From positions 1-64,000 of the IMG/VR virus record IMGVR_UViG_3300025127_000022: a DNA stretch of 64,000 nucleotides. One strand, 5' to 3'. Each line of letters opens with the position of its first letter. The first letter of the stretch is position 1. Below are positions 1,324 to 47,665 of the stretch, piece after piece. The notes beneath the pieces were generated by a model. It saw nothing but the letters and a program-made list of their open reading frames with translations, made no database searches and was not told the origin of the DNA. This stretch comes from a virus. Made by a program: the position numbers and the translations under genes.

Positions 1324-1632
1324 ATGTTAAGAGATAAGATAAAAGAAGAACTAAGATTACTATCTGAACAACAATTAGATTATGACAGGTCTGGTGGAGA
1401 AGATACTAGAGACTGGTGGAGAGCAAAACTACAGAGTTATATAATGAGTGCTATAGAAGATGTGGACCAAATGATGTATGATGGTAGTAGGTCAATGGGT
1501 CATTACAATGAAATGGGTGTATATGTACCTTTAGCAGAACTTAAACGATTTAGTAATGCAGAGATAGCTGGGATTCTAGATAAGGTAATGAGAAGATTTC
1601 CCCCAGCATACGGAAACCCATCTGAATATTAG
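1324..1632 (+). CDS. Hypothetical protein with N-terminal leader (MLRDKIKEELRLLSEQ)
   Basis: TATTTAT at 1300-1306 favours the ATG at 1324 over the track start at 1255. Confidence 0.7.
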   Translation: MLRDKIKEELRLLSEQQLDYDRSGGEDTRDWWRAKLQSYIMSAIEDVDQMMYDGSRSMGHYNEMGVYVPLAELKRFSNAEIAGILDKVMRRFPPAYGNPSEY

Positions 1633-1677
1633 TATATAGTGTAAATTTTTCCGGAGAAAATTTTTCGGGAATTTGAC

Positions 1678-1881
1678 CTATAGGTTTCTATCCCTATTAT
1701 ACAGGTCTTTTTCAAGTCGTACAATTTCTGACATTACCTTATCAGCTTCAAAAGTCTTTTCATCACTCTTAGTACGATTCGTCCTAGATAGTTTATAAGA
1801 TTCTTCCATTAGGGAATTATACTTATCATTAAGTTTTTCCAGTTCTGTTTTTCTTTTAAATAATTTCTTTATCCAATTCAT
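1678..1881 (-). CDS. Lacal_2735-like small protein
   Basis: LFKRKTELEKL..KY..LMEESYKLS.TNR.KSDEK..EA pattern typical of the flavobacterial family. Confidence 0.7.
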   Translation of the reverse strand: MNWIKKLFKRKTELEKLNDKYNSLMEESYKLSRTNRTKSDEKTFEADKVMSEIVRLEKDLYNRDRNL

Positions 1882-2620
1882 AATTTCTATTGTTTTCTTT
1901 TTTTAACCCAAATGTAGGCAAGTATCATCAAACCTATTCCCCAACTTATTTCGTAAATCTCAAACATTTCTCTTATTTTTTACCCACATATAAATTACCA
2001 CTATAAACGTTACAGCCCATAATAACTCTAAACAATCAAATATATTCATTTCCTGGACAAAAATAAATAGGTTAAAATACAAGCTATAGTAATAACAGTC
2101 CCTACAATAAACACATCAGGCACTTCAATTATTTTACCATCAGCTGTTTTACCTATTTCAATCATATAATCTTTTACCTTCATTATTTCTTTTTTGTTAT
2201 TTGTCTAATCTTGTAAACAACGTACCCCAACATTGGAGTTCCCATCAATAAGGTTAGTAAACTAGGATGTGGTTCTCCACATAATCCCAACGTGTGTCTT
2301 AACCATTCAATCATTTATTTATCTTTTTTACTTCTTCAATGTTTATCATGGTATTTAACGTTGTTCCTATACTAAAGTTTTGTTTTAGTAATACTTTATT
2401 ACCTACCACCTTCTCAACTGTATATGGGGAATCCATCCACCTTACAGTATCTCCAACTTTAATATTGTTCATCATTTTCTTTTTATTTTAAAAGATAATG
2501 TATCCATCTCATATGATTTTTGGAAAAACCATAATACCATTTTAATTATTTTGTTCATATTGGTTATTTTTACTATATACAATATACGAAAGTTGATAAC
2601 ATTTATGAAGTGTAACCTTA

Positions 2621-3324: not shown

Positions 3325-3326
3325 AG

Positions 3327-4238
3327 ATGAAAAATACACTAAAAGAAGAGATTAATAGAATCAATCAATTATTAACTGAACGTGATATGAATGACGCTGC
3401 GATGGACGTTCATGGAGTAATGAGTGACGTTAATGTGAATAAAAGTGAGATAAGTGATATGAGAGGTGAGATAAGTGATATGGATGATATGCTAAACGAT
3501 GTTTTTGGAGATGAGATACGTAATAGGTTTTCTGAAAAAAATGTAGATGATATGTCTGGTGCTATTCACGACCTAGGTGATGCGGCTCAATCTTTAGAAG
3601 ATGCTGAAGATGAATTAGATATTACACATTCACAGTTAGAAGATTTGTATAATAGTTTACACGACATGGGTAAATCAGATTTACGTGATAGTTTAAGTGA
3701 AATGAGATTTGATGGTAAATCTACAGGTTTATTTAGTGATGAAGAAACTACTATGAATGAACTGGAGATTGATGAAAGTCATTGTAGTTCTAAAGATTTA
3801 GATGAAGGACATTGTAGTAGTAAAGGACTAGATGAAGATGAGGAAGAAGAAGTTTCTATGGCAAGAAAAAATAGAGTTCTTAGGAGACCTTATTCTTCTA
3901 GTGCAAAATTTAAAGCTGGTCTTAGTGAACAAGAGAGACCACCACTAGCTTTAGATAGGGAATTAAGTTTCGTTTTAGACGAAATACATGACGATTTATT
4001 TTATACCCTACCTGGACAATTCCAGGAATATAATTTAGGTGAACAAGTACGTCTATATCAAGAATTAAAAAGTAGATTAGATTCGTATCCAGCATCAAAA
4101 TCATTGCCTGAAGTTAAACAAATTCTTGACCGTATGGAATATGACCTAAGTGGTCTAGAAGGATTTAACGAAAGACTAGGTGAATTATTTTATATCTTAA
4201 CTGGTCGATACGAATTTTCTCCTGAAGCTAGAAGATAG
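3327..4238 (+). CDS. Acidic hypothetical protein with leader and internal L-x-E sites (putative internal head protein)
   Basis: Starts MKNTLKEEINRINQLLTE; internal HCSSK-x-LDE duplication. Confidence 0.75.
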   Translation: MKNTLKEEINRINQLLTERDMNDAAMDVHGVMSDVNVNKSEISDMRGEISDMDDMLNDVFGDEIRNRFSEKNVDDMSGAIHDLGDAAQSLEDAEDELDITHSQLEDLYNSLHDMGKSDLRDSLSEMRFDGKSTGLFSDEETTMNELEIDESHCSSKDLDEGHCSSKGLDEDEEEEVSMARKNRVLRRPYSSSAKFKAGLSEQERPPLALDRELSFVLDEIHDDLFYTLPGQFQEYNLGEQVRLYQELKSRLDSYPASKSLPEVKQILDRMEYDLSGLEGFNERLGELFYILTGRYEFSPEARR

Positions 4239-4329
4239 AAAAGATTAAGAAGTTAAGTGAATTAGAGTCGCTATAATTAACCAAACTACAAATGCCTGTA
4301 CGTAATTAAATCTTTTCTTTTTTAATTTT

Positions 4330-7001: not shown

Positions 7002-7409
7002 ATGAAAAAACAATTTTTAATTTCACAAGAAGAAAAGAATAGGATTTTGGGTTTACATGAGTCTTATCTAGGTAATCACGGGACATCTTTAATTAAAGAA
7101 GAAAGTACTGCAGATAAAATGAGAGGTTGTCAAGATGAAAATGTTGGTAATTTTAATAAAAAGGACGAAGGTTTATTTGGTATTCTTTTTAACTCTATAA
7201 GTGGTCCAGGAACAAATGAAAAAGCAGTTAGAAAAGTTATATCTACAGATAATTTTAAATATTTTACAAAAGAAAAACAAAAACAATTTAGTGAAAGATT
7301 AAAATGTATCGAAGGTGATAAATTTAGTGGGATACTAAATTTTATCATGAACGACTTTTCAGGTAAAGAAAAAGATACTATTCAAAAACTATTATCTAAC
7401 ATAAAGTAG
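7002..7409 (+). CDS. Leader-bearing protein with annexin-like repeat
   Basis: Leader EEKNRILGLHE...LIKE; LFNSISGPGTNEKAVRKVI; TATTTAT 6979-6985. Confidence 0.65.
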   Translation: MKKQFLISQEEKNRILGLHESYLGNHGTSLIKEESTADKMRGCQDENVGNFNKKDEGLFGILFNSISGPGTNEKAVRKVISTDNFKYFTKEKQKQFSERLKCIEGDKFSGILNFIMNDFSGKEKDTIQKLLSNIK

Positions 7410-7897: not shown

Positions 7898-8608
7898 ATG
7901 CCTAAGTTACTTAACATATTAAAAGAACACATGTTACCATCTGATGTCCCATCAAACTCAGACTTAGATTTTGGTGGATTAGAAAATCTTATGGTTCAAG
8001 CTTTATTTAGACACGAGGGTGGTTGGGGAGTACCACCTAAGGCTTTTTTACTATACATTAGCCCTAGTGGAGTAATTAGAGGAATTAAAAATAGTCAACA
8101 TTCCTCACCTAGTGACCACCAATTTAGGGTAGGACAAAAAGTAAACTTATCTGATTTAATTGAGTTTGAGAATAATAGTAAGTTTGATTTACGTATGAAA
8201 GGTAGGATACGTGAAAGTAGGATGAATGAAGAAAAAAGTAATGTACATCCTATCATCACATATATGGAGAATATAAAACCCCATTATGATTTATTAGATG
8301 ATTACATCAAGTTAAGAGTTTATTTTAAGAATGCTGGATATAGTGAAGAAGATTTGAAATCAGTAAAAAGAGCACCACAGTGGGTATTTCAGATACAAAA
8401 CAGTTTTCCACTTAAGATAGAAAAAATGAAAAGAGACCTTCAAAAAATAGGAATACTTAAATTTAAGGGTTATCCTGACGGTGACGATAAAATATTAATA
8501 GATTACATTAAAAACGAACTAAAGAAGATAGACCAAGAGTTCCCAATGAATCCACCTGAAACTTCATATGTCCCACCCATAATGAAAGACGGTAGTCACC
8601 TTATTTAA
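7898..8608 (+). CDS. Hypothetical protein with leader ([10 protein letters not shown])
   Basis: Long ORF in operon; internal RMNEE junction. Confidence 0.7.
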
Positions 8609-11481: not shown

Positions 11482-11949
11482 ATGAACTTACTAGAATCAA
11501 ATAAAAACGAAAAAAATAGAATATTAAAACTACATTTAAATGAACAAACCTCATCTTCTTCTGCGGGTGCATATGAAACACCTATGGCTTTCGATGGTGA
11601 AGTTGATGGTAGAAACAATAATTTAGTTGGTGTAGAATTAGTTATGAGTTTACCTGATGAATTTGATATTACTAAAGGTAAGGTTGGTGGTTTTGAAGAG
11701 GTAGATATGGAAACTTGTCCTACATGTGGTATGTGTCACGAGGGACCATGTAATCATGAAGAAATGGACGTAGAATCTTTTGACATGGATGATTTATTAA
11801 TGGAACCTACAGATGATACTCCAGATAGTGATGTTATACCAAATACATTACTTACTTTATTTGGTGATGTCAATGTAGATGGAGATTTAGAAATAGAAAT
11901 GGAGGAAGAGCCAAAAAAACTAAAAGGTTCTAGAAAATTTAGAAGATAG
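11482..11949 (+). CDS. Acidic leader-bearing hypothetical protein
   Basis: EKNRILKLHLNEQ; CPTCGMCH; TATTTAT 11461-11467; paralog of the next gene. Confidence 0.7.
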   Translation: MNLLESNKNEKNRILKLHLNEQTSSSSAGAYETPMAFDGEVDGRNNNLVGVELVMSLPDEFDITKGKVGGFEEVDMETCPTCGMCHEGPCNHEEMDVESFDMDDLLMEPTDDTPDSDVIPNTLLTLFGDVNVDGDLEIEMEEEPKKLKGSRKFRR

Positions 11950-12587
11950 TGGTAGAAAAAGAAAAAAATAGAATATTAAAACTTCATTTACAAGAAAAAA
12001 TAACAAGAGGTGGTAAGGGAGGAACCAATAGTAGTTCTTCAGGTTCTTATATTTCTACAGGAGCTTTTGAACCTGGTGGGATATTAACTACCAGTGGAAG
12101 AGAAAAAGACAAGGGATTACTTCCTGATGAAGTGGATATAACGAAAGGGAGTGAGGAATTCCAACTAGACCCAAAAATTTTTATTATAGATACAGGTGAT
12201 GATGACGACATTGACATTGACATTGATGACGAAGAGATTGATATAATTAAACCGAAGCCTAAACCCAAACCAAAACCTAAACCACCAAAGGAGCCAATTG
12301 AAGATATTATTCCTATAGCACTACCTAGCCCTGGTCCTATTACTAGTCCTATTGTTACACCACCAGCAGCACCAACATCACCCACACCAACACAACCTGA
12401 GGATAATGAAGAGATTAACAGACCTTTAAGTTTGAGTTGTTGTAAAAAATGTGATAACGGGATGTACACTAATAGATGTTTTCCGTTTGATAGTGATGAG
12501 GATGAAGATTGTAGGTTCCCTACTCTAGAAATTTGTGAAGATGAAAGTGACCCTAAACTTCCATCTATGTTAGATATTTTCGCTTAG
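11949..12587 (+). CDS. Leader-bearing Pro-rich hypothetical protein
   Basis: EKNRILKLHLQE, LPDEVDITKG shared with the upstream gene; (KP)n tract; Cys-rich C-terminus. Confidence 0.7.
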   Translation: MVEKEKNRILKLHLQEKITRGGKGGTNSSSSGSYISTGAFEPGGILTTSGREKDKGLLPDEVDITKGSEEFQLDPKIFIIDTGDDDDIDIDIDDEEIDIIKPKPKPKPKPKPPKEPIEDIIPIALPSPGPITSPIVTPPAAPTSPTPTQPEDNEEINRPLSLSCCKKCDNGMYTNRCFPFDSDEDEDCRFPTLEICEDESDPKLPSMLDIFA

Positions 12588-19401: not shown

Positions 19402-19640
19402 CGTCTAAAACCTTTTATTTCAGTTCTAGTTCCCATTCCAATCATAGTATTAATAAAATTAATCCTTTCTTCTATTTTGTTCTTAGCGATTTGTAAAATT
19501 TCTAAATCAAATTCTGAGTCTACCCAATTTACAAAATCCTCACTACTAAAAGAAGCTTCATAATTTGTCAAATCGACCTCTTCTTCTATTTTATTTAGAA
19601 GTTTTTGATACTGGTGTTCTGTTAAAATAACTTTAGACAT
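19398..19640 (-). CDS. Leader-bearing hypothetical protein
   Basis: MSKVILTEHQYQKLL; TATTTAT on minus at 19658-19664. Confidence 0.7.
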   Translation of the reverse strand: MSKVILTEHQYQKLLNKIEEEVDLTNYEASFSSEDFVNWVDSEFDLEILQIAKNKIEERINFINTMIGMGTRTEIKGFRR

Positions 19641-21836: not shown

Positions 21837-22550
21837 ATGAAAACAGGTTTATTAGACATATTAAAAGAATCTATAAATGAAGGTGGGGTCAAAAAAGACC
21901 TTTACACTAATTTAAAATTATCTAAACGTAATGAATTTTACGAAGAAGATGATTTAACACAGATACCACTAAGCCCACAAGAAAAATATGATAGAGAGGT
22001 AACTGAACTAAGAGTTAAAAATGATAAACTATTCGAAAAAAAATTAAGGCATTATTTTACTTATTTACAACGTTTAGGTGGGATGGACGAAGTAAAAAAT
22101 TCATTAGAAACTCATCCTGATGGCACAAGAAATGTCCCCGCTTATAAAGATGCGATAGGTGGATTAAAATTAGTTGGATTTAATCCTGAATATTATAGAC
22201 CCTTATCTATGGACTTAATGGATAAAATTTACGTGTTAGTCGTTAATTATATACACAATGGTGGAGACAGTAGAAATTTTATGGAAGGACCTTTAGACAT
22301 TATACCCGCTAAACAGTGGGACGTAGATACCGATTACTCAGAAGACGTGATTGAATATGGAACGTCTTTTGGTTCCGCGTATGGTGATAATGAAGAGCGT
22401 GTTAAAGAACTGGTGTTAGCTCATCCATGGCATTTCGAACAAGATAGAGAGACTCACGACCATGATTATGTGGGGGACTACAAAAGCAAAAAAATAACAA
22501 ATCTATCAGTTAAGGACATTAAATTAGTAAGACAAGCATTTGAACGATGA
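21837..22550 (+). CDS. Leader-bearing hypothetical protein
   Basis: MKTGLLDILKESINE; TATTTAT 21824-21830 supports this start. Confidence 0.7.
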   Translation: MKTGLLDILKESINEGGVKKDLYTNLKLSKRNEFYEEDDLTQIPLSPQEKYDREVTELRVKNDKLFEKKLRHYFTYLQRLGGMDEVKNSLETHPDGTRNVPAYKDAIGGLKLVGFNPEYYRPLSMDLMDKIYVLVVNYIHNGGDSRNFMEGPLDIIPAKQWDVDTDYSEDVIEYGTSFGSAYGDNEERVKELVLAHPWHFEQDRETHDHDYVGDYKSKKITNLSVKDIKLVRQAFER

Positions 22551-22738
22551 AAAATATAGAAAACAAAATTAAAAGAATGAGGAAATTAATGTTGGAGTCT
22601 GAAGGTAGCCCTGAAGAAAACGACTTTATAGATGGTGTCAGAGACATATTAAAAAAACAGAAAGAGAACAAGGATGAGAACGCTTATTACGATGATTTCC
22701 AAAAACTATTCAAAAAATTAGACATACCTTTTCATTAA
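22547..22738 (+). CDS. Small leader-bearing protein
   Basis: MKNIENKIKRMRKLMLE. Confidence 0.6.
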   Translation: MKNIENKIKRMRKLMLESEGSPEENDFIDGVRDILKKQKENKDENAYYDDFQKLFKKLDIPFH

Positions 22739-25855: not shown

Positions 25856-26458
25856 ATGAAAAGAAAAGTCACAAATAACGACATTAGAAAAGCCATTAGG
25901 GGAGTTATAAATGAAGGACATAGTTCGTATATGGCTAAGTCTCAGTTATACAACATCGCTAGAAAAGCACAAAGTATGTACGACCAATTAGAAAAGGGTG
26001 AACCTTTGGAAGATTGGATGGAATCTAATATTGCAAAAATGGACAATATGATGGACAGTGTTAGTGACGCTTTCTCATATGACCAACACCAGGAGAGAAG
26101 TTGTCCAGATGGAATGTACTGGTGTAATGAAGACCAAATTTGTAAACCTGACTCACAAGATATGAGTATTATGGTTTCTACACAGGAAATGAATGAAGCT
26201 ATAGGTTTTACTAAAAGTTATGAGGGTGAGTTAAAGACTCATATGGATGCTTTTATTAACATTGTATGTGGTTATATAAAAGAACAAGTAAGTAAAAAAT
26301 CTATGTATGGGGATGAAGTGATAGTACAAAGATTATATCAGTTATTAGCTGAGGGAGGAGAACTACATTCTCCAGTACAAGAACTTATAGATATAATAGA
26401 TAACTTACCTAATAAAGACCAAGGACCGATGGGTTTTAGAATAGGACAAAATTATTAA
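25856..26458 (+). CDS. Leader-bearing modular hypothetical protein
   Basis: Leader ending VINE; CPDGMYWC; second module after EMNE; TATTTAT 25844-25850. Confidence 0.72.
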   Translation: MKRKVTNNDIRKAIRGVINEGHSSYMAKSQLYNIARKAQSMYDQLEKGEPLEDWMESNIAKMDNMMDSVSDAFSYDQHQERSCPDGMYWCNEDQICKPDSQDMSIMVSTQEMNEAIGFTKSYEGELKTHMDAFINIVCGYIKEQVSKKSMYGDEVIVQRLYQLLAEGGELHSPVQELIDIIDNLPNKDQGPMGFRIGQNY

Positions 26459-26460: not shown

Positions 26461-27741
26461 ATGACAAAAATTTTAATCTCAGAAAAACAATTAGAAAGAC
26501 TAAGTAAAATAGTTTTAAAAGAACAGAATAGACCTGTTACTGTAAGTCCAGGAGAATTGGTTCAGATGTATATGACAAACGACTTAAATAAAATTCTTTT
26601 AAGTAAACAAGATGAACTCGCGGGACAATATTTTATAGCTATTGTTGGGAATGATGAACAAATACAATTAAGATATGGTGAAAATGGTAGTGAAGGAGCT
26701 GAATTTGAAATGGAAGATTTTGGTACGAGAGGAAAAAGATTTAGACTACCCATTGGTAGATGGTCTATAACAGTACCTACTAACGATATTGATTTAATAG
26801 CTGAATTAGAAAATTCAGAACCTTATGGGAAAGATTATAAAGCGTTTTTTGCTGTTAATGACGATTTAACTAATTACGTTAAAAGAGAAATAAATAGAGT
26901 TAAAGTTAAATTTTTATTCTATATAGATAGACAAGCATCTAGTGACGGTTTCGGAGGTTTTACATTTTACCAATTACCAGGGAGGAAAAAACCTAAAGGG
27001 GTACCCATAGTTAATTTAGGGCAATCTTTCCCTATAACTGAAATTACTCCACTAGGAAGTAAAAGAGGTTCGAGAGCTAATACGATGGGACTCAAACTTG
27101 GTAAAAGAATTTACGGTGAGGTTTATGGTTCAGGACTACAAGCAAAACTCGAAAGATTACAATTAACTATCCCAGCTGAATTATTACCCCAAAAACCAGG
27201 AGGCGACCCAATAACAACACCAGATATACCAGAAGAAGATATCATCATACCTATATTTTCAGTTGTGGGTGCTAATTTACCATATGCGGATAATATGATT
27301 ATGCCTTACTTTAACAAATATCCACAAGCTGAAGAACATTTTGGTAAAATAGTTGAAGCTTTTGTAAAATATATAAATGCGGGTGGTGGTGACAAACTTA
27401 CTAATGTAACTATTAAAGGTAGTGCAGATTCAGCAGCACCAAATGAAAAGGTTCCTAGTGGCTATAATAAATTAGACCATCCAGGAGGTAAACTTTTCGG
27501 TGGAATTCCAAAAACTGACTTAAAAGGAAGAAACCAATGGTTGGCAGATAATAGAGCAAAACAATACGCTAATGCTTTAATTACAGCCATTAAGGATAGA
27601 ACTGGATTTGATTTGAAGATAGAAGTATTACCTGGAGATAACTACTATGGTCAAGGAAGTAGTAAACGAGGTCAGGAATATAGAAAAATTACATTAACAC
27701 CAAACGCTCCAACACACAAGGGTCCATCACAGAAAAAATAA
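26461..27741 (+). CDS. Leader-bearing protein with C-terminal OmpA-like domain
   Basis: MTKILISEKQLERL...LKEQ; VTIKGSAD...NQWLADNRA...R.ITL. Confidence 0.65.
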   Translation: MTKILISEKQLERLSKIVLKEQNRPVTVSPGELVQMYMTNDLNKILLSKQDELAGQYFIAIVGNDEQIQLRYGENGSEGAEFEMEDFGTRGKRFRLPIGRWSITVPTNDIDLIAELENSEPYGKDYKAFFAVNDDLTNYVKREINRVKVKFLFYIDRQASSDGFGGFTFYQLPGRKKPKGVPIVNLGQSFPITEITPLGSKRGSRANTMGLKLGKRIYGEVYGSGLQAKLERLQLTIPAELLPQKPGGDPITTPDIPEEDIIIPIFSVVGANLPYADNMIMPYFNKYPQAEEHFGKIVEAFVKYINAGGGDKLTNVTIKGSADSAAPNEKVPSGYNKLDHPGGKLFGGIPKTDLKGRNQWLADNRAKQYANALITAIKDRTGFDLKIEVLPGDNYYGQGSSKRGQEYRKITLTPNAPTHKGPSQKK

Positions 27742-28349: not shown

Positions 28350-29687
28350 TTAAGATATTGACTTACAAGGGTTAAACGCTTTTCCTAGAGGTCTTTCATT
28401 TCCAGAAACATCTCCACTAATTTTTCCGTAAGGTTCTTTCGGACCATAAATTATTTTTTCTAATTTTCCATTTCTATCTACAGTGTACGCACATATCATA
28501 GGTGCATCACCATGGTATCCTTTTGTTTGACCTTTATCACTTCTTGTTAAACTACCTTGTTTACCCTCTATACTTAATTGTAATAAACCTGTAGGTGATT
28601 TTTCTATCATTTGTTTTAATAATTTGTCGTTAACTGCAAATACATTAACAGCTGACTCTCCCTCACCACCTCTTCCTGGTTCTGTTGGGGGTGGTTTACT
28701 AGGGGAAATTCTTTTGATTAAATTAGGATTATCTGATTTAGAAATACCCAGTCTAGTTCCACTCTTTTTCTTAAAGTACCCCTGACCGTTATTCATATTA
28801 GCAATACCGACTTCCACCCCATTACATTTAATATTAAAGGTAGCAAAATCACAACCATGTTCTCTACTACTTGCTGGTACAGTAATCCCATCAATAGTCT
28901 CACCACCACCACCTTTTTTAAAATAACCTACAATTATTCTTAGTCCACTAGCACATTTAAATAATTTTTCTTTTTGACCCGCACTAATTGAAAACCCGGC
29001 AAAAAAAGTAATGTCAACATATTGTCCAGGGTTGGGATACTTTGAAACATCTCTTTTTTCATCAATACAACCTCCAGTATCAGTAATTTTTGCGGTTATG
29101 TTTTGAGGAGTAATTTCATTCTTTACTGCAAATCCTATATCTTTACCTTTCTTTTTAATTGTACTAATTAATTTTTTCCATCTGTTTTCTGCATAACCCA
29201 GATTTTGGTCCCATCTTGTATTACCCGCTTTAGGTAAAGTTTCAAATGGGGGTTGGGAAAGCTCTACATCTGTATATTCCTTTCCTACATTATTATAAGT
29301 GGGTTGTAAAGCATATTCATTGTAGTTACTAGCGGACCCCACAACTCGTTGAACAGTGAGTACATCTATACTATGAGTATCTAAAAAATTTTTATTTTTA
29401 GGGAGTTGTTCTATCAATTTTTGTTTTACCATTAACAATGCTTTTTCATAAACTTTTTCACTAGATATGGTAGCTCCAAAGTAAGCTGTAAATCTAATTT
29501 TACACCTTTCTGGCTTACCATCATCACCTTTACTAACGGCTACGGTACGGAGCTTAGGGTCTGGAATATTATTACTTCCACTACAATTACCATATTTTTC
29601 TTCTTGCTCAGTAATGGTTTCACCTATATTATAATCTATAAGTGATTTCATTTTTCTGATTTCGTTCTCTACTAAATGTCTTTTCAT
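28350..29687 (-). CDS. Leader-bearing protein, possible OmpA-like domain
   Basis: MKRHLVENEIRKMKSLIDYNIGETITEQ; VVGSASN...NLGYAENR. Confidence 0.65.
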   Translation of the reverse strand: MKRHLVENEIRKMKSLIDYNIGETITEQEEKYGNCSGSNNIPDPKLRTVAVSKGDDGKPERCKIRFTAYFGATISSEKVYEKALLMVKQKLIEQLPKNKNFLDTHSIDVLTVQRVVGSASNYNEYALQPTYNNVGKEYTDVELSQPPFETLPKAGNTRWDQNLGYAENRWKKLISTIKKKGKDIGFAVKNEITPQNITAKITDTGGCIDEKRDVSKYPNPGQYVDITFFAGFSISAGQKEKLFKCASGLRIIVGYFKKGGGGETIDGITVPASSREHGCDFATFNIKCNGVEVGIANMNNGQGYFKKKSGTRLGISKSDNPNLIKRISPSKPPPTEPGRGGEGESAVNVFAVNDKLLKQMIEKSPTGLLQLSIEGKQGSLTRSDKGQTKGYHGDAPMICAYTVDRNGKLEKIIYGPKEPYGKISGDVSGNERPLGKAFNPCKSIS

Positions 29688-30380: not shown

Positions 30381-32021
30381 ATGAAAAAAATGAAAAAGAA
30401 TTTAATTAACGAAGACATCAGAAAAATGATGGGTCTTATCGATTATGATAGGGGTAAAACTTTAACAGAAAATAAAGAATCTAATAAATCACAATTATTA
30501 AATGAAATTTTTCCCGCATTAGTAGCCTACGGTGCTGTAGCTGCAGGTCTATATAAAGCATGGGAATGGGGAGTAGACGCTTGGGGTTCTAAAAGTATAG
30601 ATGCAAGAATAACTGACGCTTTAGACCAGACAACTTGGCCAAAAATCGAGAAGGCTATTAGAGAGACTGAGAAAGCAACGGGAGAAGATATTGAAGGAAA
30701 GTTTGATGTGGCAAGTGCATCAGAAGCTAAAAGAATGGCTAACGATTTAAATGCAGCATTTGATTATACATTCGGAACAGATGAGGACAAAATAGGTGAT
30801 ACATTTGCTGATATGGGTTCATTTATGGATTTAGCACGTGTTTCTTATGAATATGGTGACCGTCCTGACGGTGATTTAGCTTATGAATTAGACGACGAAT
30901 TGAGTCAATCTGATTTTAAAACTTACGTAAGTAATAATATGAAAAGTAAACCTTTAGCTGTTTTTAATGGTAAATCTTACGATAGTCTAGAGAAATTATT
31001 AGCTGCTATAGCAGAAATGGCTAAACCAGCTGAGGAAGAAAAAACACCTAAATCAATCATTAAAGAAAAATTTGAAAATTTCCCATGTGTTCAGGTAGAA
31101 ATTGAAAACGCAAAAGAAATTAAATACCCTTATAAAGGAAAAGAGGACCGAGTATATATTATCGCAGAAAATGGCGACCTAATGTTAGTAACAGTAGATG
31201 GAAGGTATAAAGCTAAAGTGGGTGGAGAAGTATCTTCAGGTAATATTGAATGTCCAGATGATTTTAGTATTGAAGATGAAGGAGAATTAACATTATCAGA
31301 AGGTAGATATATTTTTGAACAAAACTTTGGTGGTATTAAATTAAATCCTAAAGGTAAACCTGCTGATGATGCCTCTGGTGAAGAAGAAGGTGGTGGAAGT
31401 TCATCTGGTGGAGGAAGTTCATCTGGTGGGGGAAGTAGATATACTAGAACCGATTTAGATTATATGGATGTTGTATCTTGTAATGGTGAAGTAAAAAAAG
31501 GTGATAGAGGACAAGTAGTGAAAGACATTCAATCAAAATTAAATGAATCTCCTAAAGTAAATCCTAAATTAAAAGTAGATGGTATATTCGGTTCAAAAAC
31601 TGAAGCAGCCATTAAACAAGCGGGGGGGACAAATGTATTTAACTGTGAACTTGCTAAAGCATTAGACGCTGAATCTAATAAACCTGAAGATAATGTAGCG
31701 GGTAAAGAAGAAAAAGATGGTGGTGAAAAAATAAGCCAAGCAGAAGCTAACGAACTAGATAAAGTTACAATAGAAAAAGAAGGTACTGATAAAGTGACCA
31801 TTAAAGACCAGATAGCTGATTTAAATCAAGCGATTAGTCAACAACCTACTAAAGATGATTGTAAAGATTTAATTGCAAGTGCAGCCGCAGGAATAAAGAT
31901 GGGTGTTCGAGTGAATGACCTTGGTTCATTAAAACAATGTTTTAATTCATATAATTTTTTCCCTTCTATTTCAGCGGGGAAAGTTAAAAAAACTTACGGA
32001 ATAAAAGGAAAAGGTAATTAA
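30381..32021 (+). CDS. Leader-bearing annexin-repeat and peptidoglycan-binding-domain protein
   Basis: ANDLNAAFDYTFGTDEDKI...Y...L..EL.DELS; KGDRGQVVKDIQSKLN...LKVDGIFGSKTEAA; TATTTAT 30346-30352. Confidence 0.75.
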   Translation: MKKMKKNLINEDIRKMMGLIDYDRGKTLTENKESNKSQLLNEIFPALVAYGAVAAGLYKAWEWGVDAWGSKSIDARITDALDQTTWPKIEKAIRETEKATGEDIEGKFDVASASEAKRMANDLNAAFDYTFGTDEDKIGDTFADMGSFMDLARVSYEYGDRPDGDLAYELDDELSQSDFKTYVSNNMKSKPLAVFNGKSYDSLEKLLAAIAEMAKPAEEEKTPKSIIKEKFENFPCVQVEIENAKEIKYPYKGKEDRVYIIAENGDLMLVTVDGRYKAKVGGEVSSGNIECPDDFSIEDEGELTLSEGRYIFEQNFGGIKLNPKGKPADDASGEEEGGGSSSGGGSSSGGGSRYTRTDLDYMDVVSCNGEVKKGDRGQVVKDIQSKLNESPKVNPKLKVDGIFGSKTEAAIKQAGGTNVFNCELAKALDAESNKPEDNVAGKEEKDGGEKISQAEANELDKVTIEKEGTDKVTIKDQIADLNQAISQQPTKDDCKDLIASAAAGIKMGVRVNDLGSLKQCFNSYNFFPSISAGKVKKTYGIKGKGN

Positions 32022-34556: not shown

Positions 34557-35966
34557 ATGAAAATTAAATTATCTGAAGAACAGTATAAAAAATTGATGAA
34601 CGAAATAGGTGGGTATGATGACCCAGCTACAGGTATGAGAGATGAACAAGCTATGATGGATAGAGTAATCGAAGCTTATAAAAATCTCACAAACGGAATG
34701 AATATACTTAGTGATTTAATTCCAGGTGTCATAGTACAAGACCGTCTGAGAAACCAACTGATGGAAATTAGAGAATCTTTAGTTAATCCGTTAAATGGAT
34801 TTAGTGCACTATTGAGGGATATCCATGGTCAACAAGATGAAGGACATATGGAAGATACAGATATCGAATTAGATGAAGGAAGAAAAAAGAAAAGAAAATC
34901 TAAAAAGAAAAAATCTAAAAAGAAAAAATCTAAAAAAGGTGATAGGTGTACTAGAATAGCTAAAAGAAAATATGATGTATGGCCTTCAGCTTATGCGTCA
35001 GGTGCGGTAGTTAGATGTAGGAGAGGAGAGATTTGGAAAGGACTTAACGAAGAAGATATTTCAAATGTTAATGAAGGTTGGTCTGACGAATATAAAAAAT
35101 CCATAGATTGTAATAACCCAAAAGGATTCTCACAAAAAGCTCACTGTGACGGTAAAAAAAAAGCGTCACTAGAAGAAGCTAAAAGAAAAAAAAGAAAATC
35201 AAAAAAAAGAAAGTTAACTTCTAAACCTAGTTCTGAAGGCAGTTTACGTGATTGGTTTAAAAGAAAAGGTGCTAAAGGTAGTACTGGAGGTTGGGTAGAT
35301 TGTAACGCACCCGATGGTGATGGTGGTTATAAATCCTGTGGTAGACAAAAAGGCGAAAAAAGAAGTAAGTATCCCGCTTGTAGACCAACACCGTCCGCGT
35401 GTAAAAGTAAGGGCAAAGGTAAAAAATGGGGAAAAAAAGCTTCACGTAACGAATCTTTAATGTACCACCTAAAAAATAATATTCCTTTAAATGAAAGTGT
35501 TTTTAGATATGGGAGTGACTCTCACTTTAACTTAATTAATGACGCTAGAAATTTATTTAAAGAAAATGAGTTACAATTAAATCCTGTAGAAAAAGATTTG
35601 GTGGAAAGTGATATGGGTAGATTTGGTTATTACCAAAATGAGTTAGTCCCGTTAGACTTACCAATGGAACTTAATGAAGCTGAATATAGAGGTAAAAAAG
35701 TTACATTAAACAAACCTAAAAGAGGTGGGTCTAAAGCGTATTACGTTTACGTTAAAAATCCAAAAACAGGGAATGTTAAAAAAGTGGCTTTTGGTTCTTC
35801 AGGTCTTAGAGCAAAAATTAATAATCGAGGTGCTGTTAAGAGTTTTGTAGCACGTCATAGATGTAAAGAAAAAAACGATAAAACTAAACCAGGTTATTGG
35901 TCCTGTAGATTACCTAGATATGCTAAATCTTTAGGATTATCTGGTGGAGGTGGACAATGGTGGTAA
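34557..35966 (+). CDS. Modular basic, Cys-containing protein (putative polyprotein)
   Basis: Leader MKIKLSEEQYKKLMNE; modules WPSAYASG, IDCNNPKGFSQKAHC, LRDWF..GWV.C, AEYRG.KV.LNKP..ARH.C..YWSC, separated by L/V-x-E. Confidence 0.78.
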   Translation: MKIKLSEEQYKKLMNEIGGYDDPATGMRDEQAMMDRVIEAYKNLTNGMNILSDLIPGVIVQDRLRNQLMEIRESLVNPLNGFSALLRDIHGQQDEGHMEDTDIELDEGRKKKRKSKKKKSKKKKSKKGDRCTRIAKRKYDVWPSAYASGAVVRCRRGEIWKGLNEEDISNVNEGWSDEYKKSIDCNNPKGFSQKAHCDGKKKASLEEAKRKKRKSKKRKLTSKPSSEGSLRDWFKRKGAKGSTGGWVDCNAPDGDGGYKSCGRQKGEKRSKYPACRPTPSACKSKGKGKKWGKKASRNESLMYHLKNNIPLNESVFRYGSDSHFNLINDARNLFKENELQLNPVEKDLVESDMGRFGYYQNELVPLDLPMELNEAEYRGKKVTLNKPKRGGSKAYYVYVKNPKTGNVKKVAFGSSGLRAKINNRGAVKSFVARHRCKEKNDKTKPGYWSCRLPRYAKSLGLSGGGGQWW

Positions 35967-35970: not shown

Positions 35971-36231
35971 ATGAATTTTCCATTTAAAGAACATACCCAA
36001 GATGGGTACCACATTAGAACTTTTTCACAAAAAGTAGATAGTGAAGAATTAATGTGGCATAGAGACAAAGAAGATAGAATAGTGGAATCTGTTGGTGACA
36101 CTAACTGGATGATTCAACTAGATGACAAATTACCACAACCACTAACAGAAAAAGTATTTATACCCAAAGAGGTGTATCACAGAGTAATAAAAGGAAATGG
36201 TGATTTAACAGTAAAAGTTAAAAAATTATGA
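35971..36231 (+). CDS. Small cupin-like protein
   Basis: ELMWHRDKEDR, W.IQLD, IPKEVYHRVIKG. Confidence 0.7.
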   Translation: MNFPFKEHTQDGYHIRTFSQKVDSEELMWHRDKEDRIVESVGDTNWMIQLDDKLPQPLTEKVFIPKEVYHRVIKGNGDLTVKVKKL

Positions 36232-36875
36232 AAATTAGAATAACAGAGTCACAATATAATTTAATTCTAGAAGGTAAAGAAGATAACTTTAAAAGAGTTA
36301 AACTTCCTTATGACTATTCTGATTTAGAAAAATTTGTCGGTAGAGAAACCATGTGGGAGCACTATAATCGTCATTATAAAGGTTACACCACCAAACTTAA
36401 TGAAGCGTTTTCCCATAGAAAAAATCCACCTAAAGATATTGTAGGTATTATTAAAAACATTGGTAGGTACGATAAATTTACCAGAGATAATGCGGGTGGT
36501 TATTATAATCATAGTTTATTCTGGAATTACTTAAGTCCTAAACCTACTAAACCCTCACCAGAATTAAGTAAAAAAATAAATGAGGATTTTGGGAGTATGT
36601 CTAAATTTAAAAAGAAATTTGACGAAGAGTCTGCTAAAGTTTTTGGTTCAGGTTGGTGCTGGTTAGTATTTAAAAGTGGTAAACTCAAAGTTATTACTAC
36701 ACCAAACCAAGATAACCCTCTTATGGATAATTTAGGTAAACCTCTTTTAGGGTTAGATGTGTGGGAACACGCTTACTATTTAAATTACATGGCAGACCGT
36801 AAAAAATACATTAAAAATTTCTGGAAAGTAGTTAACTGGGATACAGTTTCTAAAGAATTTAATTTGGTAGTTTAA
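36228..36875 (+). CDS. sod: Fe/Mn superoxide dismutase with N-terminal leader
   Basis: LPYDYSDLE, HYNRHYKGY, NAGGYYNHSLFW, FGSGWCWL, NQDNP, DVWEHAYY. Confidence 0.95.
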   Translation: MKIRITESQYNLILEGKEDNFKRVKLPYDYSDLEKFVGRETMWEHYNRHYKGYTTKLNEAFSHRKNPPKDIVGIIKNIGRYDKFTRDNAGGYYNHSLFWNYLSPKPTKPSPELSKKINEDFGSMSKFKKKFDEESAKVFGSGWCWLVFKSGKLKVITTPNQDNPLMDNLGKPLLGLDVWEHAYYLNYMADRKKYIKNFWKVVNWDTVSKEFNLVV

Positions 36876-42660: not shown

Positions 42661-42984
42661 ATGGGAAACGCATTTAAATTAAGTCTTCATCTTGAACATA
42701 TTGTAAAAGATATAGTTAACAAGAAAAAAGTGCACTACACTGAAGAAGGTTTAAGAGAAAACATATTTACCTTTCTTGATACTATTTATGATAATAGGAA
42801 GAAGTTTAAATTGACCGAAGCAACAAAATTAATTAAGGGAGGTTTTAGGGACCAATTAATTGAAGAAGCTGTATGTGAAATGTCAGATGATGAAGATTAT
42901 CTTACTTCTACTATTAATAAAAAAATTAATAACCTTTCAAAACACTACATAAGAGAGTGGATAAATAAAAAAATAAGCAAATGA
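42661..42984 (+). CDS. Hypothetical protein
   Basis: TATTTAT 42638-42644. Confidence 0.65.
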   Translation: MGNAFKLSLHLEHIVKDIVNKKKVHYTEEGLRENIFTFLDTIYDNRKKFKLTEATKLIKGGFRDQLIEEAVCEMSDDEDYLTSTINKKINNLSKHYIREWINKKISK

Positions 42985-43301
42985 AAAAAGTAATAAGACT
43001 TACTGAATCTGAATTAGTTAGAATTATAGAGAATTTAACCTTAGGTCATGAATTAGAAGAAAAAAAAGAAACCTCTAAAACAAAAAGTGAACCATTACCT
43101 AAAAGTGCTAATCCCGTAGCTAAAGATATTTTTAAAAAAATTGAAGGACATTTAAATGCAACTAAAGGAGCTTTCAGCTTAAAAGATAAAAATGTAACTG
43201 AAAATTTTGAAGACGATAAGTTGTATAAGAAATGGAATTGGAAAACCAATAATGGTAAAGTTAATGTAACTGTTACTGTTGATGTTAAAATGAATGATTA
43301 A
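42981..43301 (+). CDS. Leader-bearing hypothetical protein
   Basis: MKKVIRLTESELVRIIE. Confidence 0.7.
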   Translation: MKKVIRLTESELVRIIENLTLGHELEEKKETSKTKSEPLPKSANPVAKDIFKKIEGHLNATKGAFSLKDKNVTENFEDDKLYKKWNWKTNNGKVNVTVTVDVKMND

Positions 43302-43303
43302 TA

Positions 43304-44395
43304 ATGAATAAGGTAACAGTAAATGAAACTGAATTAATTACAATCATTAAAACAATGATTAGTGAACAAGAAGGTACTGCTGGAGGTGGTGTTGAAGCTG
43401 GAACTTCAGATGCTGGTGGTACTGGTGCAAAAACGTGGGAAACTGGTTTAACCAGAGGTTCAGCTAATCCTGCTGGTGGTGGTGTAAGTCACTGGGCAGA
43501 CTCTTATTCTATTAGTAGAGGTAAAGCAAATCCTTTATGGGAAGATAGTGATGAAGAAGGTATGTTTGATATGGAGGTAGAAGATGATGGGTTTACTACA
43601 GCAGATAGAGATATTAGGTCTTATTATAACAAACCTTCATTTGATGAGATGAAAAGAAAACATTCATTAGATTATGATACAGAGTTTGATGTGGACTTAC
43701 TAAATGAAAGTAAGTGGTACAATACTTTTTTAGATTTTGTGGGGATTGTAGACCCAACAGGTATCGCTGATGGTATTAACGCCATGTCTTACTTTAGACA
43801 AGGTGATATTCTATATGGAATGTTAAGTTTGATATCTCTAGTACCATATGTTGGAGACGCTATAGCTAAACCATTTATTGGTTTAATGAAAGCAGGAAAA
43901 ATAAATGCTAAAGCTATTAACGCTGGACTTAAAAGTGGTAATGCTGCTAAAGTAGCTTCGGAGATGGGTAAAACAAAGGCTGGTAAAGCTGTTCTTGAAA
44001 GTATGAAAAATCCATCAACACAAGGATTCTTAGGTAAGATAATATCTAAAATAGGGAAATTACCAGGATTTAGGGCTTTCTCTAAAGACGCAAAGACATA
44101 TGTTAGAGTATTCACTCAAGCAGCAAAACAAACAGGAAAAGTTAAAATATTCCGTAAGAGTGGTGGATTACTAACTAGAATGCAAAGAAAAGGATTATTA
44201 AACAGAACAAAATTATATTCTAAATTTATAAACTACCTTACAGGAACTGGTGTAGGAGCAGCAGCAATAGAAGGTATGGATGAAGGAACATTAAATGGCA
44301 AATTTGAGGAATTTTTAAAGTCAGACGAGGGAACCAGTTTCTTTAACGACTTAAATAAACAAGACCAAGGAGATTTTGTGGATGCCTTAAAGTAA
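43304..44395 (+). CDS. Leader-bearing protein with pre-toxin-TG-like hydrophobic hairpin
   Basis: LLNE followed by LDFVGIVDPTGIADGINA..Y...GD...G.LSLISLVPYVGD. Confidence 0.68.
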   Translation: MNKVTVNETELITIIKTMISEQEGTAGGGVEAGTSDAGGTGAKTWETGLTRGSANPAGGGVSHWADSYSISRGKANPLWEDSDEEGMFDMEVEDDGFTTADRDIRSYYNKPSFDEMKRKHSLDYDTEFDVDLLNESKWYNTFLDFVGIVDPTGIADGINAMSYFRQGDILYGMLSLISLVPYVGDAIAKPFIGLMKAGKINAKAINAGLKSGNAAKVASEMGKTKAGKAVLESMKNPSTQGFLGKIISKIGKLPGFRAFSKDAKTYVRVFTQAAKQTGKVKIFRKSGGLLTRMQRKGLLNRTKLYSKFINYLTGTGVGAAAIEGMDEGTLNGKFEEFLKSDEGTSFFNDLNKQDQGDFVDALK

Positions 44396-44445
44396 TAAAC
44401 AATAAATTTTAATAGATAACTAAATATTTATAAAAAAAAACAAAA

Positions 44446-46803
44446 ATGGAAAAACCTAAAATGTCATTGACCGAAGAACTAAGAAAAATAGACCATTTAA
44501 ATGGCTATGATAAAGAATTTACCTTAGAAGAGTCAAAAAAATACAGTGAAGAAACTAAAAATCGTACTTACGATTTAAACATATTAACAGAAGAAGAAGC
44601 TAAAATCAAATATAAAGATTTTTTAAATGAGGGAAAAAAACCTGAACTACTTCTAGAATTTTTACCTGCTATTGCTAGTGGTATCGTTAGACTTTTACCT
44701 TTTGCTGGAAGAGCTCTTGCAAGTGTAGGTAGGTTCGGAGCTAGAGGGGGTAAACTATTTAAAAAGTTTCCTAAAATGGGAAAAGCTTTAGGTTTTGGTA
44801 AAATTTCAACAAAAGGATTAAACCTTGGTAAGGCAACTCCATTAGCTGCTAGAGGTTTTACAGGTGCGGGTGGTAAAATGGGTGGTAAAGTAGTACCAGG
44901 TTTACTTAATGCACAAGCTACTAGAGGATTAGGTTCTTTACTTACATGGGGAACTGGAGCGTGGTTGGTTAACTCTTTTGCAAGTGGTAGTAGTACCCCT
45001 TTACCAGGAGACGCGGTAGCGGGTCAAGAAGATTGGGCAAATGGTGAACAACCATCAAAAGAAGATTGGATGTCTATGTGTTTTGCACCCGAGTACTATG
45101 AAAGTTTAGTACAAATGGATAATGATGATAGTAATGTAACCGTAACTTTTCAGTCAGAAGCAGATATTGTACAAATCGCAACAGCTATTAATGACGCTAC
45201 TGAAGGTGGTGAAAAATATTTTGGTAAAGGTATTGTTGATTTTTTAACTTTTGATGTAGCCGCGGGAGCAGGTACTGACGAAGACACTATTTTTAGAGCC
45301 TTCCAACAAATTAATACTGTTGGGGACTGTTCACATCTAGCTAAAATGTATCAACTTAAATTTGATGTTCCTTTAATAGAGGAATTATATGATGAATTAG
45401 ATGAAGCTGACTTAAATCAAATTTACAATATTCTAAAAGGAAAACCATTAGCAATTATTAATGGTAAAAGAATATTCACTAATGATGATTTAGATGAGTT
45501 ATTAGAAAAAGAAGCTAAAGAGGTAATTGAAAGACCTGAAGGTTTACCAGCTTATAGATTAAAATTTAATAGTTTATTTGGAGGAGCACTGGTAGATGTA
45601 TTTGTAGGTGTGGATGACGCGGGAACTTCAGCATTAGCAGCTGTATTTAAATCTGGTAGTAAAGATTATTTGGGACAATTCCAATATGTAGAAAACTCTG
45701 AAGAAAAATACTTTTTCCAAACACCAACAGGTGAAGTAGGTGCAGTTACTGATGAAGACGACAAAGCAAAACTTGCAAAAATATTCGGTAAAGCAGATGA
45801 TGAATCAGACGCGGAAAAAGATATATTAATTTTAACTAAAGATATTGAAGTTGATGGTACAATATATGATGTAGACGAAAATTTGGCAGACATCGAAGGA
45901 CCAGAAGGTACTGCTGATGAATATATAGATGAGTTAGTTAGAGATAACCCTACTACAGCTAAAAGAAAACCTACCGCACTCCAAGGAGCTGCTATCGCAT
46001 TAGCGATGGGTGTTAAAGATTTTGAGGTTTTAACAGAATCAATCACAGGATTAGCTGAAGTTTTAGGTGAAAGTAAATTAGTCGTAGAACAAAAATACAC
46101 CGTTAACTTTGATAAAGATGATGACAAATACTCAATTCGAAGAGTAAGAAGAACAAGTGGAAATACTGAAGAAAAACCAGAAACTACAAAAGATGATAGT
46201 AGTAGTAGTTCATCTTATGGTGTAGCACCAACGTTAACTGCAGTTGCAGCTGGTAATGGGATAATCAAGAAAGGTATGAGAGGAGATTCAGTAGCAGCAA
46301 TACAAAGAATGTTAAATATGAGTCCTATAACTGGTATATTTAATTCAGCTACAGAAAAAGAAGTGAGAGATTACCAATCTTCAAATAGACTTAAAGTAGA
46401 TGGTATAGTTGGTCCAGAAACTGCTGGTTTAATGGTTAAAGGAATGGATTTTAAAGGAAATGAAAAACCTACACCAGAAAGAGAAGTCGCTTCTTCGGAA
46501 ACCAAATCTACTGAAGAAGAAATAAAAAATACTTCTGGAAGATTTAGTAGTAAAGATGCCGCTGAACAAAGTTTAAAGAATCTAGAAAAGATAAACGATA
46601 CCAAAGCTACAAAAAGTGAATGTGTAATGGTTATAGCTGCAGCATCTAAAGCACTACCAACAATAGGAGGACCTAACACTTATAAAGTATTACAATACTG
46701 TTACGCAGCGTACAACTTTGGTTTAGGAAAAGAAACTAGACGTGTTAAAAGAGCGTATGGAATTAAAGGTGACGGTGATTTAAGAAATAAAAGAAGAAGA
46801 TAA
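44446..46803 (+). CDS. Leader-bearing annexin-repeat and peptidoglycan-binding-domain protein; paralog of 30381..32021
   Basis: GAGTDEDTIF...Y...F...LIEELYDEL; KGMRGDSVAAIQRML...TGIF...YQ....LKVDGIVGPET; shared C-terminus; TATTTAT 44425-44431. Confidence 0.75.
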   Translation: MEKPKMSLTEELRKIDHLNGYDKEFTLEESKKYSEETKNRTYDLNILTEEEAKIKYKDFLNEGKKPELLLEFLPAIASGIVRLLPFAGRALASVGRFGARGGKLFKKFPKMGKALGFGKISTKGLNLGKATPLAARGFTGAGGKMGGKVVPGLLNAQATRGLGSLLTWGTGAWLVNSFASGSSTPLPGDAVAGQEDWANGEQPSKEDWMSMCFAPEYYESLVQMDNDDSNVTVTFQSEADIVQIATAINDATEGGEKYFGKGIVDFLTFDVAAGAGTDEDTIFRAFQQINTVGDCSHLAKMYQLKFDVPLIEELYDELDEADLNQIYNILKGKPLAIINGKRIFTNDDLDELLEKEAKEVIERPEGLPAYRLKFNSLFGGALVDVFVGVDDAGTSALAAVFKSGSKDYLGQFQYVENSEEKYFFQTPTGEVGAVTDEDDKAKLAKIFGKADDESDAEKDILILTKDIEVDGTIYDVDENLADIEGPEGTADEYIDELVRDNPTTAKRKPTALQGAAIALAMGVKDFEVLTESITGLAEVLGESKLVVEQKYTVNFDKDDDKYSIRRVRRTSGNTEEKPETTKDDSSSSSSYGVAPTLTAVAAGNGIIKKGMRGDSVAAIQRMLNMSPITGIFNSATEKEVRDYQSSNRLKVDGIVGPETAGLMVKGMDFKGNEKPTPEREVASSETKSTEEEIKNTSGRFSSKDAAEQSLKNLEKINDTKATKSECVMVIAAASKALPTIGGPNTYKVLQYCYAAYNFGLGKETRRVKRAYGIKGDGDLRNKRRR

Positions 46804-46816
46804 AATATAATAGATA

Positions 46817-47665
46817 ATGTCTAAAATACAATTTAAAGAATCAGAATTAGTATCATTTATTGAAGATTTAGTAAATGAAGAAAAAGTAAAACAACAAAAA
46901 CCAGTTCTTTCAGAATCAAAAGAAAGAAAAATAGGTATATGGATGGATAGATTTTCCAGAAGAAATCAAGGTAAATCACCAGACACTATATTTGAAAACT
47001 ATGTACAAGAAATCCATAGATTAAATAGAAATGGGATTACTACTGACGACTTATCTAACTATCTTGTAAAACATGAAAATATACTTAGTGAACAAGCTGC
47101 ATTTACAATGTCTCAAAACCAAGGAGTTATGGGTACATTGTGGGAAACAATTCGTGAAAAATTATATAGATGGATTTTAGGTTTTATGGGCATTAAAGAC
47201 GGTGAATTAAAAGAAATACTTGCAACATCTCTAGGTAACGTACCATTTACCCAGTTACCTAAATTAATGAATTGTGAATACTTAACTCCTATATTAACTA
47301 AAGGTGTTTTAGAATATGGTGTAAGAAGAGTTAACAGACAATTAACTGGTATGGGTGGAACAGTAGAACAAATATTTGGTAACTCACTGACTAACTTAGG
47401 TGATAACATGGAATTCTATAAAGAATTAGAAAAACAAGTAAGAGACTATCTATGTGGAGCTTTAGGTAAAAAGAAAGACCAAGTACAGGATGCTTTAAAG
47501 GATGTAGAAGAAAAGAAAAACCAACAATTTAAAGGGCAAGACCTTGGTGGTGGTGGAGAAGTACCACCTGAAACATCAGGTCAAGGTACCGCATCTTCTG
47601 GTGGCGGACTTAGTGATATAGCTCAAAAGTATTTCCAACAGTTTATGCAAAATCTCGGAAGATAA
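46817..47665 (+). CDS. Leader-bearing hypothetical protein
   Basis: MSKIQFKESELVSFIEDLVNE; internal VLSE and ILSE. Confidence 0.72.
   Translation: MSKIQFKESELVSFIEDLVNEEKVKQQKPVLSESKERKIGIWMDRFSRRNQGKSPDTIFENYVQEIHRLNRNGITTDDLSNYLVKHENILSEQAAFTMSQNQGVMGTLWETIREKLYRWILGFMGIKDGELKEILATSLGNVPFTQLPKLMNCEYLTPILTKGVLEYGVRRVNRQLTGMGGTVEQIFGNSLTNLGDNMEFYKELEKQVRDYLCGALGKKKDQVQDALKDVEEKKNQQFKGQDLGGGGEVPPETSGQGTASSGGGLSDIAQKYFQQFMQNLGR

Follow-up and report, generated by a model that had tools for sequence, protein, structure and literature searches.

The internal proteins of phage T4 are diverse and have only a tag in common, and the first 10 residues of one of them, IPIII, suffice for head targeting (PMC9026906, PMC3012670). 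The T4 protease gp21 cuts after L/I-X-E, and the internal protein Alt bears propeptides at both ends (PMC9026906). Read from NC_000866, the N-termini of ipII and ipIII are MKTYQEFIAE then A, and that of ipI is MKTFKEF...ITE then A. In phages of the phiKZ type, a protease distantly related to gp21 cleaves propeptides off after Glu, and a propeptide often contains several redundant sites (PMC9026906). The Dar antirestriction proteins of phage P1 are loaded into the head in morphogenesis, are injected and protect the incoming phage (PMC9024508, PMC12810830). Here we analyse a stretch of 64,000 nucleotides (positions 1 to 64,000 of the 76,275-bp IMG/VR virus record IMGVR_UViG_3300025127_000022, G+C 32%; hereafter the window) in which otherwise unrelated phage proteins begin with related short leaders. 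This N-terminal tag is real and clade-wide, and we found neither a database family nor a paper for it.

The closest described counterparts are the T4 internal proteins IPI, IPII, IPIII and Alt. In both, diverse late proteins (predicted to be late in the present case) have only a short N-terminal tag in common, which starts with M-K, has hydrophobic residues at key positions and terminates in (L/I)-x-E. Both also combine a protease of the gp21 family with head genes in a T4-like order, and in both the cargo genes are variable accessory genes. By contrast, the present tag is longer (15-30 residues versus 10-19 in T4) and consists of two parts, a strand and a conserved helix, and it offers two candidate cut sites. 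It is carried by 7-9% of all genes, tens per genome, versus about four in T4, and comes in three interchangeable types; some relatives also have copies inside proteins or at their C-terminus, as well as multi-module proteins, and cleavage and packaging are here predicted from sequence. Phages phiKZ, 201phi2-1 and SPN3US, with their gp175/gp245-type proteases, are likewise large phages with dozens of head proteins, but their cut motif is S/A/G-x-E and no common leader consensus is reported for them, whereas the present protease and capsid protein resemble those of T4 far more closely and a single conserved tag is common to all candidates. The cargo-loading peptide of encapsulins is also a short conserved peptide on unrelated cargo, and it binds inside an HK97-fold shell from either end of the cargo. 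Such a peptide fits the rare C-terminal and internal copies described below, as a working analogy only and not as membership; encapsulins, which are compartments of bacteria, hold no DNA, involve no processing by a protease and deliver nothing, and they differ in peptide sequence and shell family. The P1 Dar proteins too are accessory proteins loaded into a head, but their loading is ordered via partner proteins (Hdf, DarA) and not by one common cleavable tag.

The first 45 residues encoded by each of 980 genes from four related genomes (G000, G001, G002 and G005) were scanned with iterated profiles for two leader types, A and B, and with a helix-only pattern, C. The profiles recovered 61 A and 14 B leaders, two of them common to both, hence 73 of the 980 genes, while same-size internal segments and reversed N-termini of the same genes gave no A or B match. 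The helix-only pattern was found in 22 of the 980 N-termini versus 1-7 per set of internal segments, and adds about 19 genes to those with A or B. Profiles made from the window copies alone give members 14-27 bits and reach at most 8-10 bits elsewhere in the six-frame translation, where all their matches are located at the start of an open reading frame. Leave-one-out analysis within the window is weak, with about four of the seven A members clearly above background and three marginal, and consequently the case rests on related genomes. In five related records the family A profile found 27, 12, 9, 1 and 7 copies, almost always starting at residue 1-3, and leaders are present in every related record searched. 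The scan of relatives with leader hidden Markov models, proposed as a check by the sequence-only reading, thus recovers an N-terminal tag throughout the clade, with controls at zero. Five other phages with T4-like heads (1.6 Mb) yielded no significant match, the single weak one having an E-value of 0.04.

Judged from their sequences, the A, B and C leaders are variants of one unit whose core is a predicted amphipathic helix ending in [ILV]-x-E. The module spans about 10-30 residues, with a helix consensus D-L-x-R-I-V-K-R-V-I-x-E; in A and B a short strand, MKK-h-x-L-T-E, precedes the helix, whereas C lacks this strand. Residue by residue, D-L-T-R-I-V-K-R-V-I-K-E at the end of A aligns with the B core E-K-N-R-I-L-K-L-H-L-N-E, and the B members of relatives are hybrids, for example MKLIITE followed by EEKNRILGMH. 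Based on this core alignment, the hybrids and the leader swaps described below, the three separate families of the sequence-only reading are rather one superfamily. An alignment of 29 sequences has 22 conserved columns, after which similarity ends abruptly. In the end logo of 170 non-redundant copies, K (83%), R (85%), V (83%), I (91%), any residue and E (98%) are followed by polar, variable residues; the leaders thus do end in (L/I/V)-x-E, as proposed and in agreement with the cutting rule of T4 gp21, L/I-X-E (PMC9026906), and conservation collapses directly after Glu. The pentapeptide [KR][VI][IL]xE was observed 87 times versus 13.7 expected, and 61 of the 87 lie in the first 45 residues. 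Each leader offers two candidate cut sites, after L-T-E and after I-x-E. No Pfam or PHROG match covers the leader.

The proteins carrying the leaders are indeed unrelated: by BLAST, body similarity is found only between those starting at 30381 and 44446. The leaders are also portable, as had been claimed, since leader types are exchanged between orthologous bodies. One gene close to that of the capsid protein was compared in 22 orthologues: 12 begin with an A leader and 10 with a C leader, the leaders line up at their [ILV]-x-E end, and a few variable residues separate them from the conserved body. The superoxide dismutase (SOD) encoded in the window offers a second case. Its homology to other SODs begins at residue 20-26; bacterial SODs start directly (MAFELPKLPY...) or with export signals and have no leader, while in phage-type SODs the same SOD start is preceded by an A, a B-like or a C leader, which always terminates in [LIV]-x-E then A or G. 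In an AlphaFold2 model the core has a predicted local distance difference test score above 90 and residues 7-16 form an appended low-confidence helix, so that in the model the SOD leader is a flexible add-on. In pairs of leaders, codons differ at 40.8% of the positions with identical residues, versus 49.4% expected from codon usage; synonymous sites are thus nearly randomised, which indicates that selection acts on the peptide. One pair of leader DNAs, 136 kb apart, is 97% identical with unrelated downstream sequence, which shows recent copying; the leader as a DNA cassette is confirmed for G001 only. At least eight paralogues of about 149 residues that start with MKIIITE(S/N)QYKLIKEN were also seen in G001, five of them in a tandem array (238754-242671) with a 507-residue SOD fusion gene in its middle, and the others dispersed.

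The motif TATTTAT peaks 0-19 nucleotides upstream of start codons and precedes about a quarter of all starts in the four genomes, including those of the terminase, protease, scaffold and other head genes. It suggests a phage-specific promoter with very short 5' leaders and, presumably, late timing. Within 45 nucleotides upstream it is found for 62% of leader genes versus 22.5% of the others (Fisher p = 1.5e-11), whereas the host-type element TAnnTTTG precedes none of 69 leader genes versus 85 of 910 others (p = 0.003). The sequence-only reading had placed the leaders on late-motif genes and found none on host-promoter genes; leader genes are indeed enriched for the motif, and the second statement is confirmed. 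TAnnTTTG marks a gene set separate from the TATTTAT genes.

The head module has the order portal, three small genes, protease, scaffold and capsid protein. It is marked in the window by a T4-type large terminase gene (61889..63613, plus strand) and continues on the same contig beyond the window end with a gp20-like portal (63951-65774), a gp21-like prohead protease (67358-68074), a gp22-like scaffold, acidic and coiled (68179-69888), and a gp23-like capsid protein (69926-71749). The protease, whose existence was a further point to be checked, matches phrog_207 at 7.5e-43 and T4 gp21 (PDB 5JBL) at 8.5e-14, the latter in an alignment that brings the ELNHP and SRGxGS motifs into register. Sites of the kind that end the leaders are conserved in the head proteins themselves. 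The N-terminal 60 residues of 81 capsid proteins are conserved and contain LYE51 and INE60 then Ala; directly after these sites comes a segment that can be aligned to the start region of mature T4 gp23. A leader-end-like K-V-I-K-E lies near the N-termini of the capsid protein (LKHLKVIKE23) and the protease (KKVIKE35), and LVKESL-x-E is kept among scaffold orthologues. Two conserved genes near the terminase (59025 and 60457) encode N-terminal peptides that vary by genome and always end in [LIF]-x-E, after which the conserved part begins; in the orthologues of 60457 these have 9-19 residues and differing sequences, all with [LIF]-x-E then A. The G002 orthologue (G002:57928) begins with MKTYKKRINE then A, which agrees with T4 MKTYQEFIAE in length, in the first four residues and in the I-x-E-then-Ala end, a likeness that may be due to chance.

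Among 55 leader proteins scanned, most are orphans (ORFans), and the annotated ones comprise three peptidoglycan-binding proteins, a LysM protein, a phage lysozyme, SOD, an M78 peptidase and an L5 gp82-like protein. Several leader proteins bind or cut the cell wall. None of the 55 has a replication, tail or fibre annotation, and no signal peptide was found on leader proteins. The body of the protein encoded at 34557 is Lys-rich and multi-module; in G001 and G002 its modules are encoded as proteins of their own, with leaders. Leader proteins of several loci, that of gene 34557-35966 among them, have in common a small basic Cys module (..LCARGK.AAKAK.DVYPSAYANG.AVQVCKG..). In a conserved gene near the capsid gene the module is preceded by a nearly invariant h-x-E then G-RKK, which looks like a second processing site that would release a basic peptide of about 50 residues. 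An exhaustive metagenome profile search matched 8,257 cluster representatives (E-value up to 0.001, among 1.84 billion), mostly at residue 1. A word-based search gave more than 1,204 matches, named 'hypothetical' and without a Pfam domain on the tag. Literature searches for the motif strings returned only noise and no paper describing the tag.

We lean, with restrained confidence, towards reading the leaders as capsid-targeting propeptides of a T4-type head-assembly system that serves many more proteins than in T4 and relies on a tag distinct from the T4 one, longer and made of two parts. Late genes would be transcribed from the TATTTAT elements, and each product would begin with a module of 10-30 residues consisting of an optional strand and an amphipathic helix. 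Through this module the protein would dock to the prohead as it assembles, either at the scaffold core or at the inner shell. The gp21-like protease would then cut after [LI]-x-E at the helix end, and perhaps also after L-T-E, freeing the cargo in the head, and the cargo would be delivered with the DNA at the next infection. All the examined sequence-level predictions of the virion cargo loading proposed by the sequence-only reading were borne out, which supports that proposal in part, docking, packaging into virions, cleavage and ejection being inferred.

Several observations weigh against such propeptides. The tripeptide by itself is not diagnostic, since 45% of non-leader genes also encode a bare [LIVMF]-x-E that ends at residues 10-30. 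The residue after Glu is variable (N, Q, E, S or M) and not mostly Ala as in T4, and the leader has no sequence homology to the T4 tag MKTYQEFIAE, with only the M-K start and the I-x-E end in common. In about 12% of A and B leaders only the first site, L/I-T-E, is present. The cargo bodies are not more basic than other proteins, which leaves a basicity like that of T4 internal proteins unsupported. No cultured close relative or proteome of the clade was found. Finally, about 30% of the top metagenome matches contain a second or third internal copy, usually beginning K-L-T-E-S-D-L, and a few have a C-terminal copy, which a strictly N-terminal propeptide does not predict, although both ends of T4 Alt bear propeptides (PMC9026906); these copies and the two candidate sites make the simple picture of a leader followed by a cleavage site less tidy. 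Within the four genomes internal A-type copies are rare, and three internal helix-only copies were found, in G001 and G002. Internal copies fit gene fusions or polyproteins and also a plain binding helix.

Such a helix is at the centre of the main rival explanation, which we regard as unlikely while giving it serious weight: the leader would be an uncleaved docking helix for another assembly or hub (capsid surface decoration, neck or tail, an intracellular phage scaffold), with Glu as a contact residue. Binding units would explain internal and C-terminal copies more easily, a single specific partner is implied by the strong conservation, the residue after Glu is variable, and the helix has an amphipathic pattern like that of a coiled coil. 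However, a near-invariant I-x-E at which conservation ends exactly fits a processing boundary, and the capsid protein, the protease and the scaffold all conserve a site of this type. The annotations of leader proteins likewise point away from tails and fibres, and an SOD enzyme would be odd as a surface part.

It is improbable that the leader is a recognition tag for the chaperones that the phage itself encodes, serving in unfolding, folding or timed removal. These are a ClpB/ClpA-like double AAA+ ATPase (51559-53595, 678 residues, minus strand) and, back to back with it and just upstream of the head module, a full-length DnaK (53794-55659, 621 residues). The basic-plus-hydrophobic N-terminus MKKVIRL presumably resembles known chaperone-binding peptides, and both chaperone genes adjoin the head module. 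The ClpA-like gene is moreover a core gene of the moraphages, the probable clade of this phage (PMC12619734). Yet the chaperones and the leaders are both clade-wide features, so that their co-variation is uninformative, and the I-x-E boundary and the link to head-type sites would be left unexplained. DnaK, furthermore, is found only in some moraphages (PMC12619734), in contrast to the leaders.

A signal for export or membrane targeting of cell-wall-binding proteins appears more improbable still. Several cargoes bind or cut peptidoglycan without a signal peptide, and the helix is amphipathic and basic. On the other side, a hydrophobic N-terminal stretch was found in none of the 73 leader genes versus 66 of 907 other genes, most cargo has no link to the envelope, and the high sequence conservation is unlike that of lipid-binding helices. 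Other phage proteins use ordinary signal peptides and a C-terminal domain of the type IX secretion system (T9SS). Export by Sec, Tat or T9SS was rejected on the basis of the missing hydrophobic stretch and of the T9SS domain, which is found only on the non-leader protein of 14580-17636.

That the similarity reflects no functional protein tag at all, but an RNA or translation-start property of late genes rich in AT, or what is left of a single large paralogue family, is hardly credible: the first codons are very AT-rich and tandem paralogue arrays exist (e.g., the five 149-residue genes in G001), but residues are kept at nearly randomised synonymous sites, which rejects an RNA or translation signal, tag copies occur inside proteins, and the bodies include unrelated known folds (SOD, lysozyme, LysM, peptidoglycan-binding domain) and swap leader types between orthologues, as in SOD, which rejects a single paralogue family.

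The coordinates given by the sequence-only reading are all correct. All seven A leaders that it listed were confirmed, and the iterated profile matches exactly the listed genes in the window. Plus-strand leaders are found at 26461..26523 (21 residues, end LKE; gene 26461-27741, a 426-residue ORFan), 34557..34604 (16 residues, end MNE; gene 34557-35966, 469 residues), 36228..36272 (15 residues, end ILE, preceding the complete Fe/Mn SOD of gene 36228-36875), 42981..43031 (17 residues, MKKVIRLTESELVRIIE; gene 42981-43301, 106 residues), 43304..43366 (21 residues, end ISE then a Gly-rich linker; gene 43304-44395, 363 residues) and 46817..46879 (21 residues, end VNE; gene 46817-47665, 282 residues). 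The seventh, at 19581..19640 on the minus strand, has 20 residues (MSKVILTE...KIEE) and belongs to gene 19398-19640 (80 residues).

The eight B leaders fare alike, profile matches and listed genes again being the same. On the plus strand they are located at 3327..3380 (18 residues, end LTE; gene 3327-4238, 303 residues), 7002..7061 (20 residues, end LHE; gene 7002-7409, 135 residues), 11482..11544 (21 residues, end LNE then a Ser-rich linker; gene 11482-11949, 155 residues), 11949..11996 (16 residues, GTG start, end LQE; gene 11949-12587, 212 residues) and 22547..22597 (17 residues, end MLE; gene 22547-22738, 63 residues). Two others precede paralogous proteins with a peptidoglycan-binding domain, at 30381..30470 (30 residues, end LTE; gene 30381-32021, 546 residues) and 44446..44532 (29 residues, end LEE; gene 44446-46803, 785 residues). 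The leader on the minus strand, at 29607..29687, has 27 residues and ends in ITE (gene 28350-29687, 445 residues).

Of the five members assigned to C, all on the plus strand, four stand. Three follow the clade-wide helix-only pattern: 7898..7927 (10 residues; gene 7898-8608, 236 residues), 21837..21881 (MKTGLLDILKESINE; gene 21837-22550, 237 residues), whose G005 orthologue begins with MKDLIEKILRE, and 25022..25054 (MKNDIRKVLRE; gene 25022-25831, 269 residues), whose G005 orthologue bears a full A leader. The fourth, at 25856..25915, is a diverged leader of 20 residues ending in INE (gene 25856-26458, 200 residues), and its G002 and G003 orthologues have A leaders. The fifth is an unverified candidate at 1324..1368 (MLRDKIKEELRLLSE) in open reading frame 1324-1632, which has no orthologue that we could find and is of uncertain gene status. 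Two leader-like head-module genes on the plus strand were absent from the earlier list. Conserved gene 59025-60467 begins with a two-helix peptide of 46 residues (59025..59162) that ends in VLNE then a Thr/Gln linker, and gene 60457-61860, which adjoins the terminase gene, begins with 16 residues (60457..60504) ending in LFE then a conserved APIDY.

The source of the window appears to be a giant phage of Flavobacteria-type hosts. A 1018-residue protein (14580-17636) with a signal peptide and a T9SS C-terminal sorting domain lies within an operon of exported proteins, for which the phage apparently uses host secretion; this protein and the TAnnTTTG promoters point to a host among the Bacteroidota. 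In IMG/VR more than 597 relatives of the capsid protein, in records of up to 296 kb, are about 65-74% identical to it, and the nearest cultured phages are distant (Microcystis phage Mel-JY01, 43%; Flavobacterium phage immuto, 40%). Searches of cultured phage records with leader proteins, at the nucleotide and protein level, and an IMG/VR scan with the protein encoded at 26461 found no match. The clade is probably that of the moraphages, described from metagenomes in 2025 (PMC12619734), which fit in size, host, chaperones and core genes; their description does not use the term 'N-terminal' and mentions no shared leader (PMC12619734). The genes at 12784-13239 (dCMP deaminase-like) and 20396-21403 (thymidylate synthase-like), judged from their N-terminal sequences, probably serve nucleotide metabolism and have no leader, in line with an early function. 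Three adjacent tRNA genes on the minus strand (48182-48437) would read Ile-UAU, Arg-UCU and Leu-UAA, and ARAGORN gives them odd lengths (94 and 91 nucleotides) and overlapping ends.

A bolder proposal, which we advance tentatively and rate just short of an even chance, concerns a whole clade of Bacteroidota jumbo phages, probably the moraphages. One sequence-defined, interchangeable tag on thousands of distinct families, including enzymes and polyproteins with internal tags, would load a very large and fast-changing head payload, making this the largest virion cargo system known and the tag a ready-made one for foreign proteins. Even if the mechanism proves to be another one, a conserved module of 17-22 residues that belongs to no database family and is carried by about 8% of genes deserves a name and an experiment. 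If the leaders are indeed capsid-targeting propeptides, they would represent a second independent system for addressing cargo to T4-type heads, and would provide a simple annotation rule for thousands of 'hypothetical' proteins. One short motif would then predict the injected proteome of abundant uncultured aquatic jumbo phages, in each genome tens of proteins, and in public data no fewer than 8,257 protein clusters. The host would meet the tagged proteins before any other phage product, which would make them a rich source of candidate anti-defence and take-over proteins.

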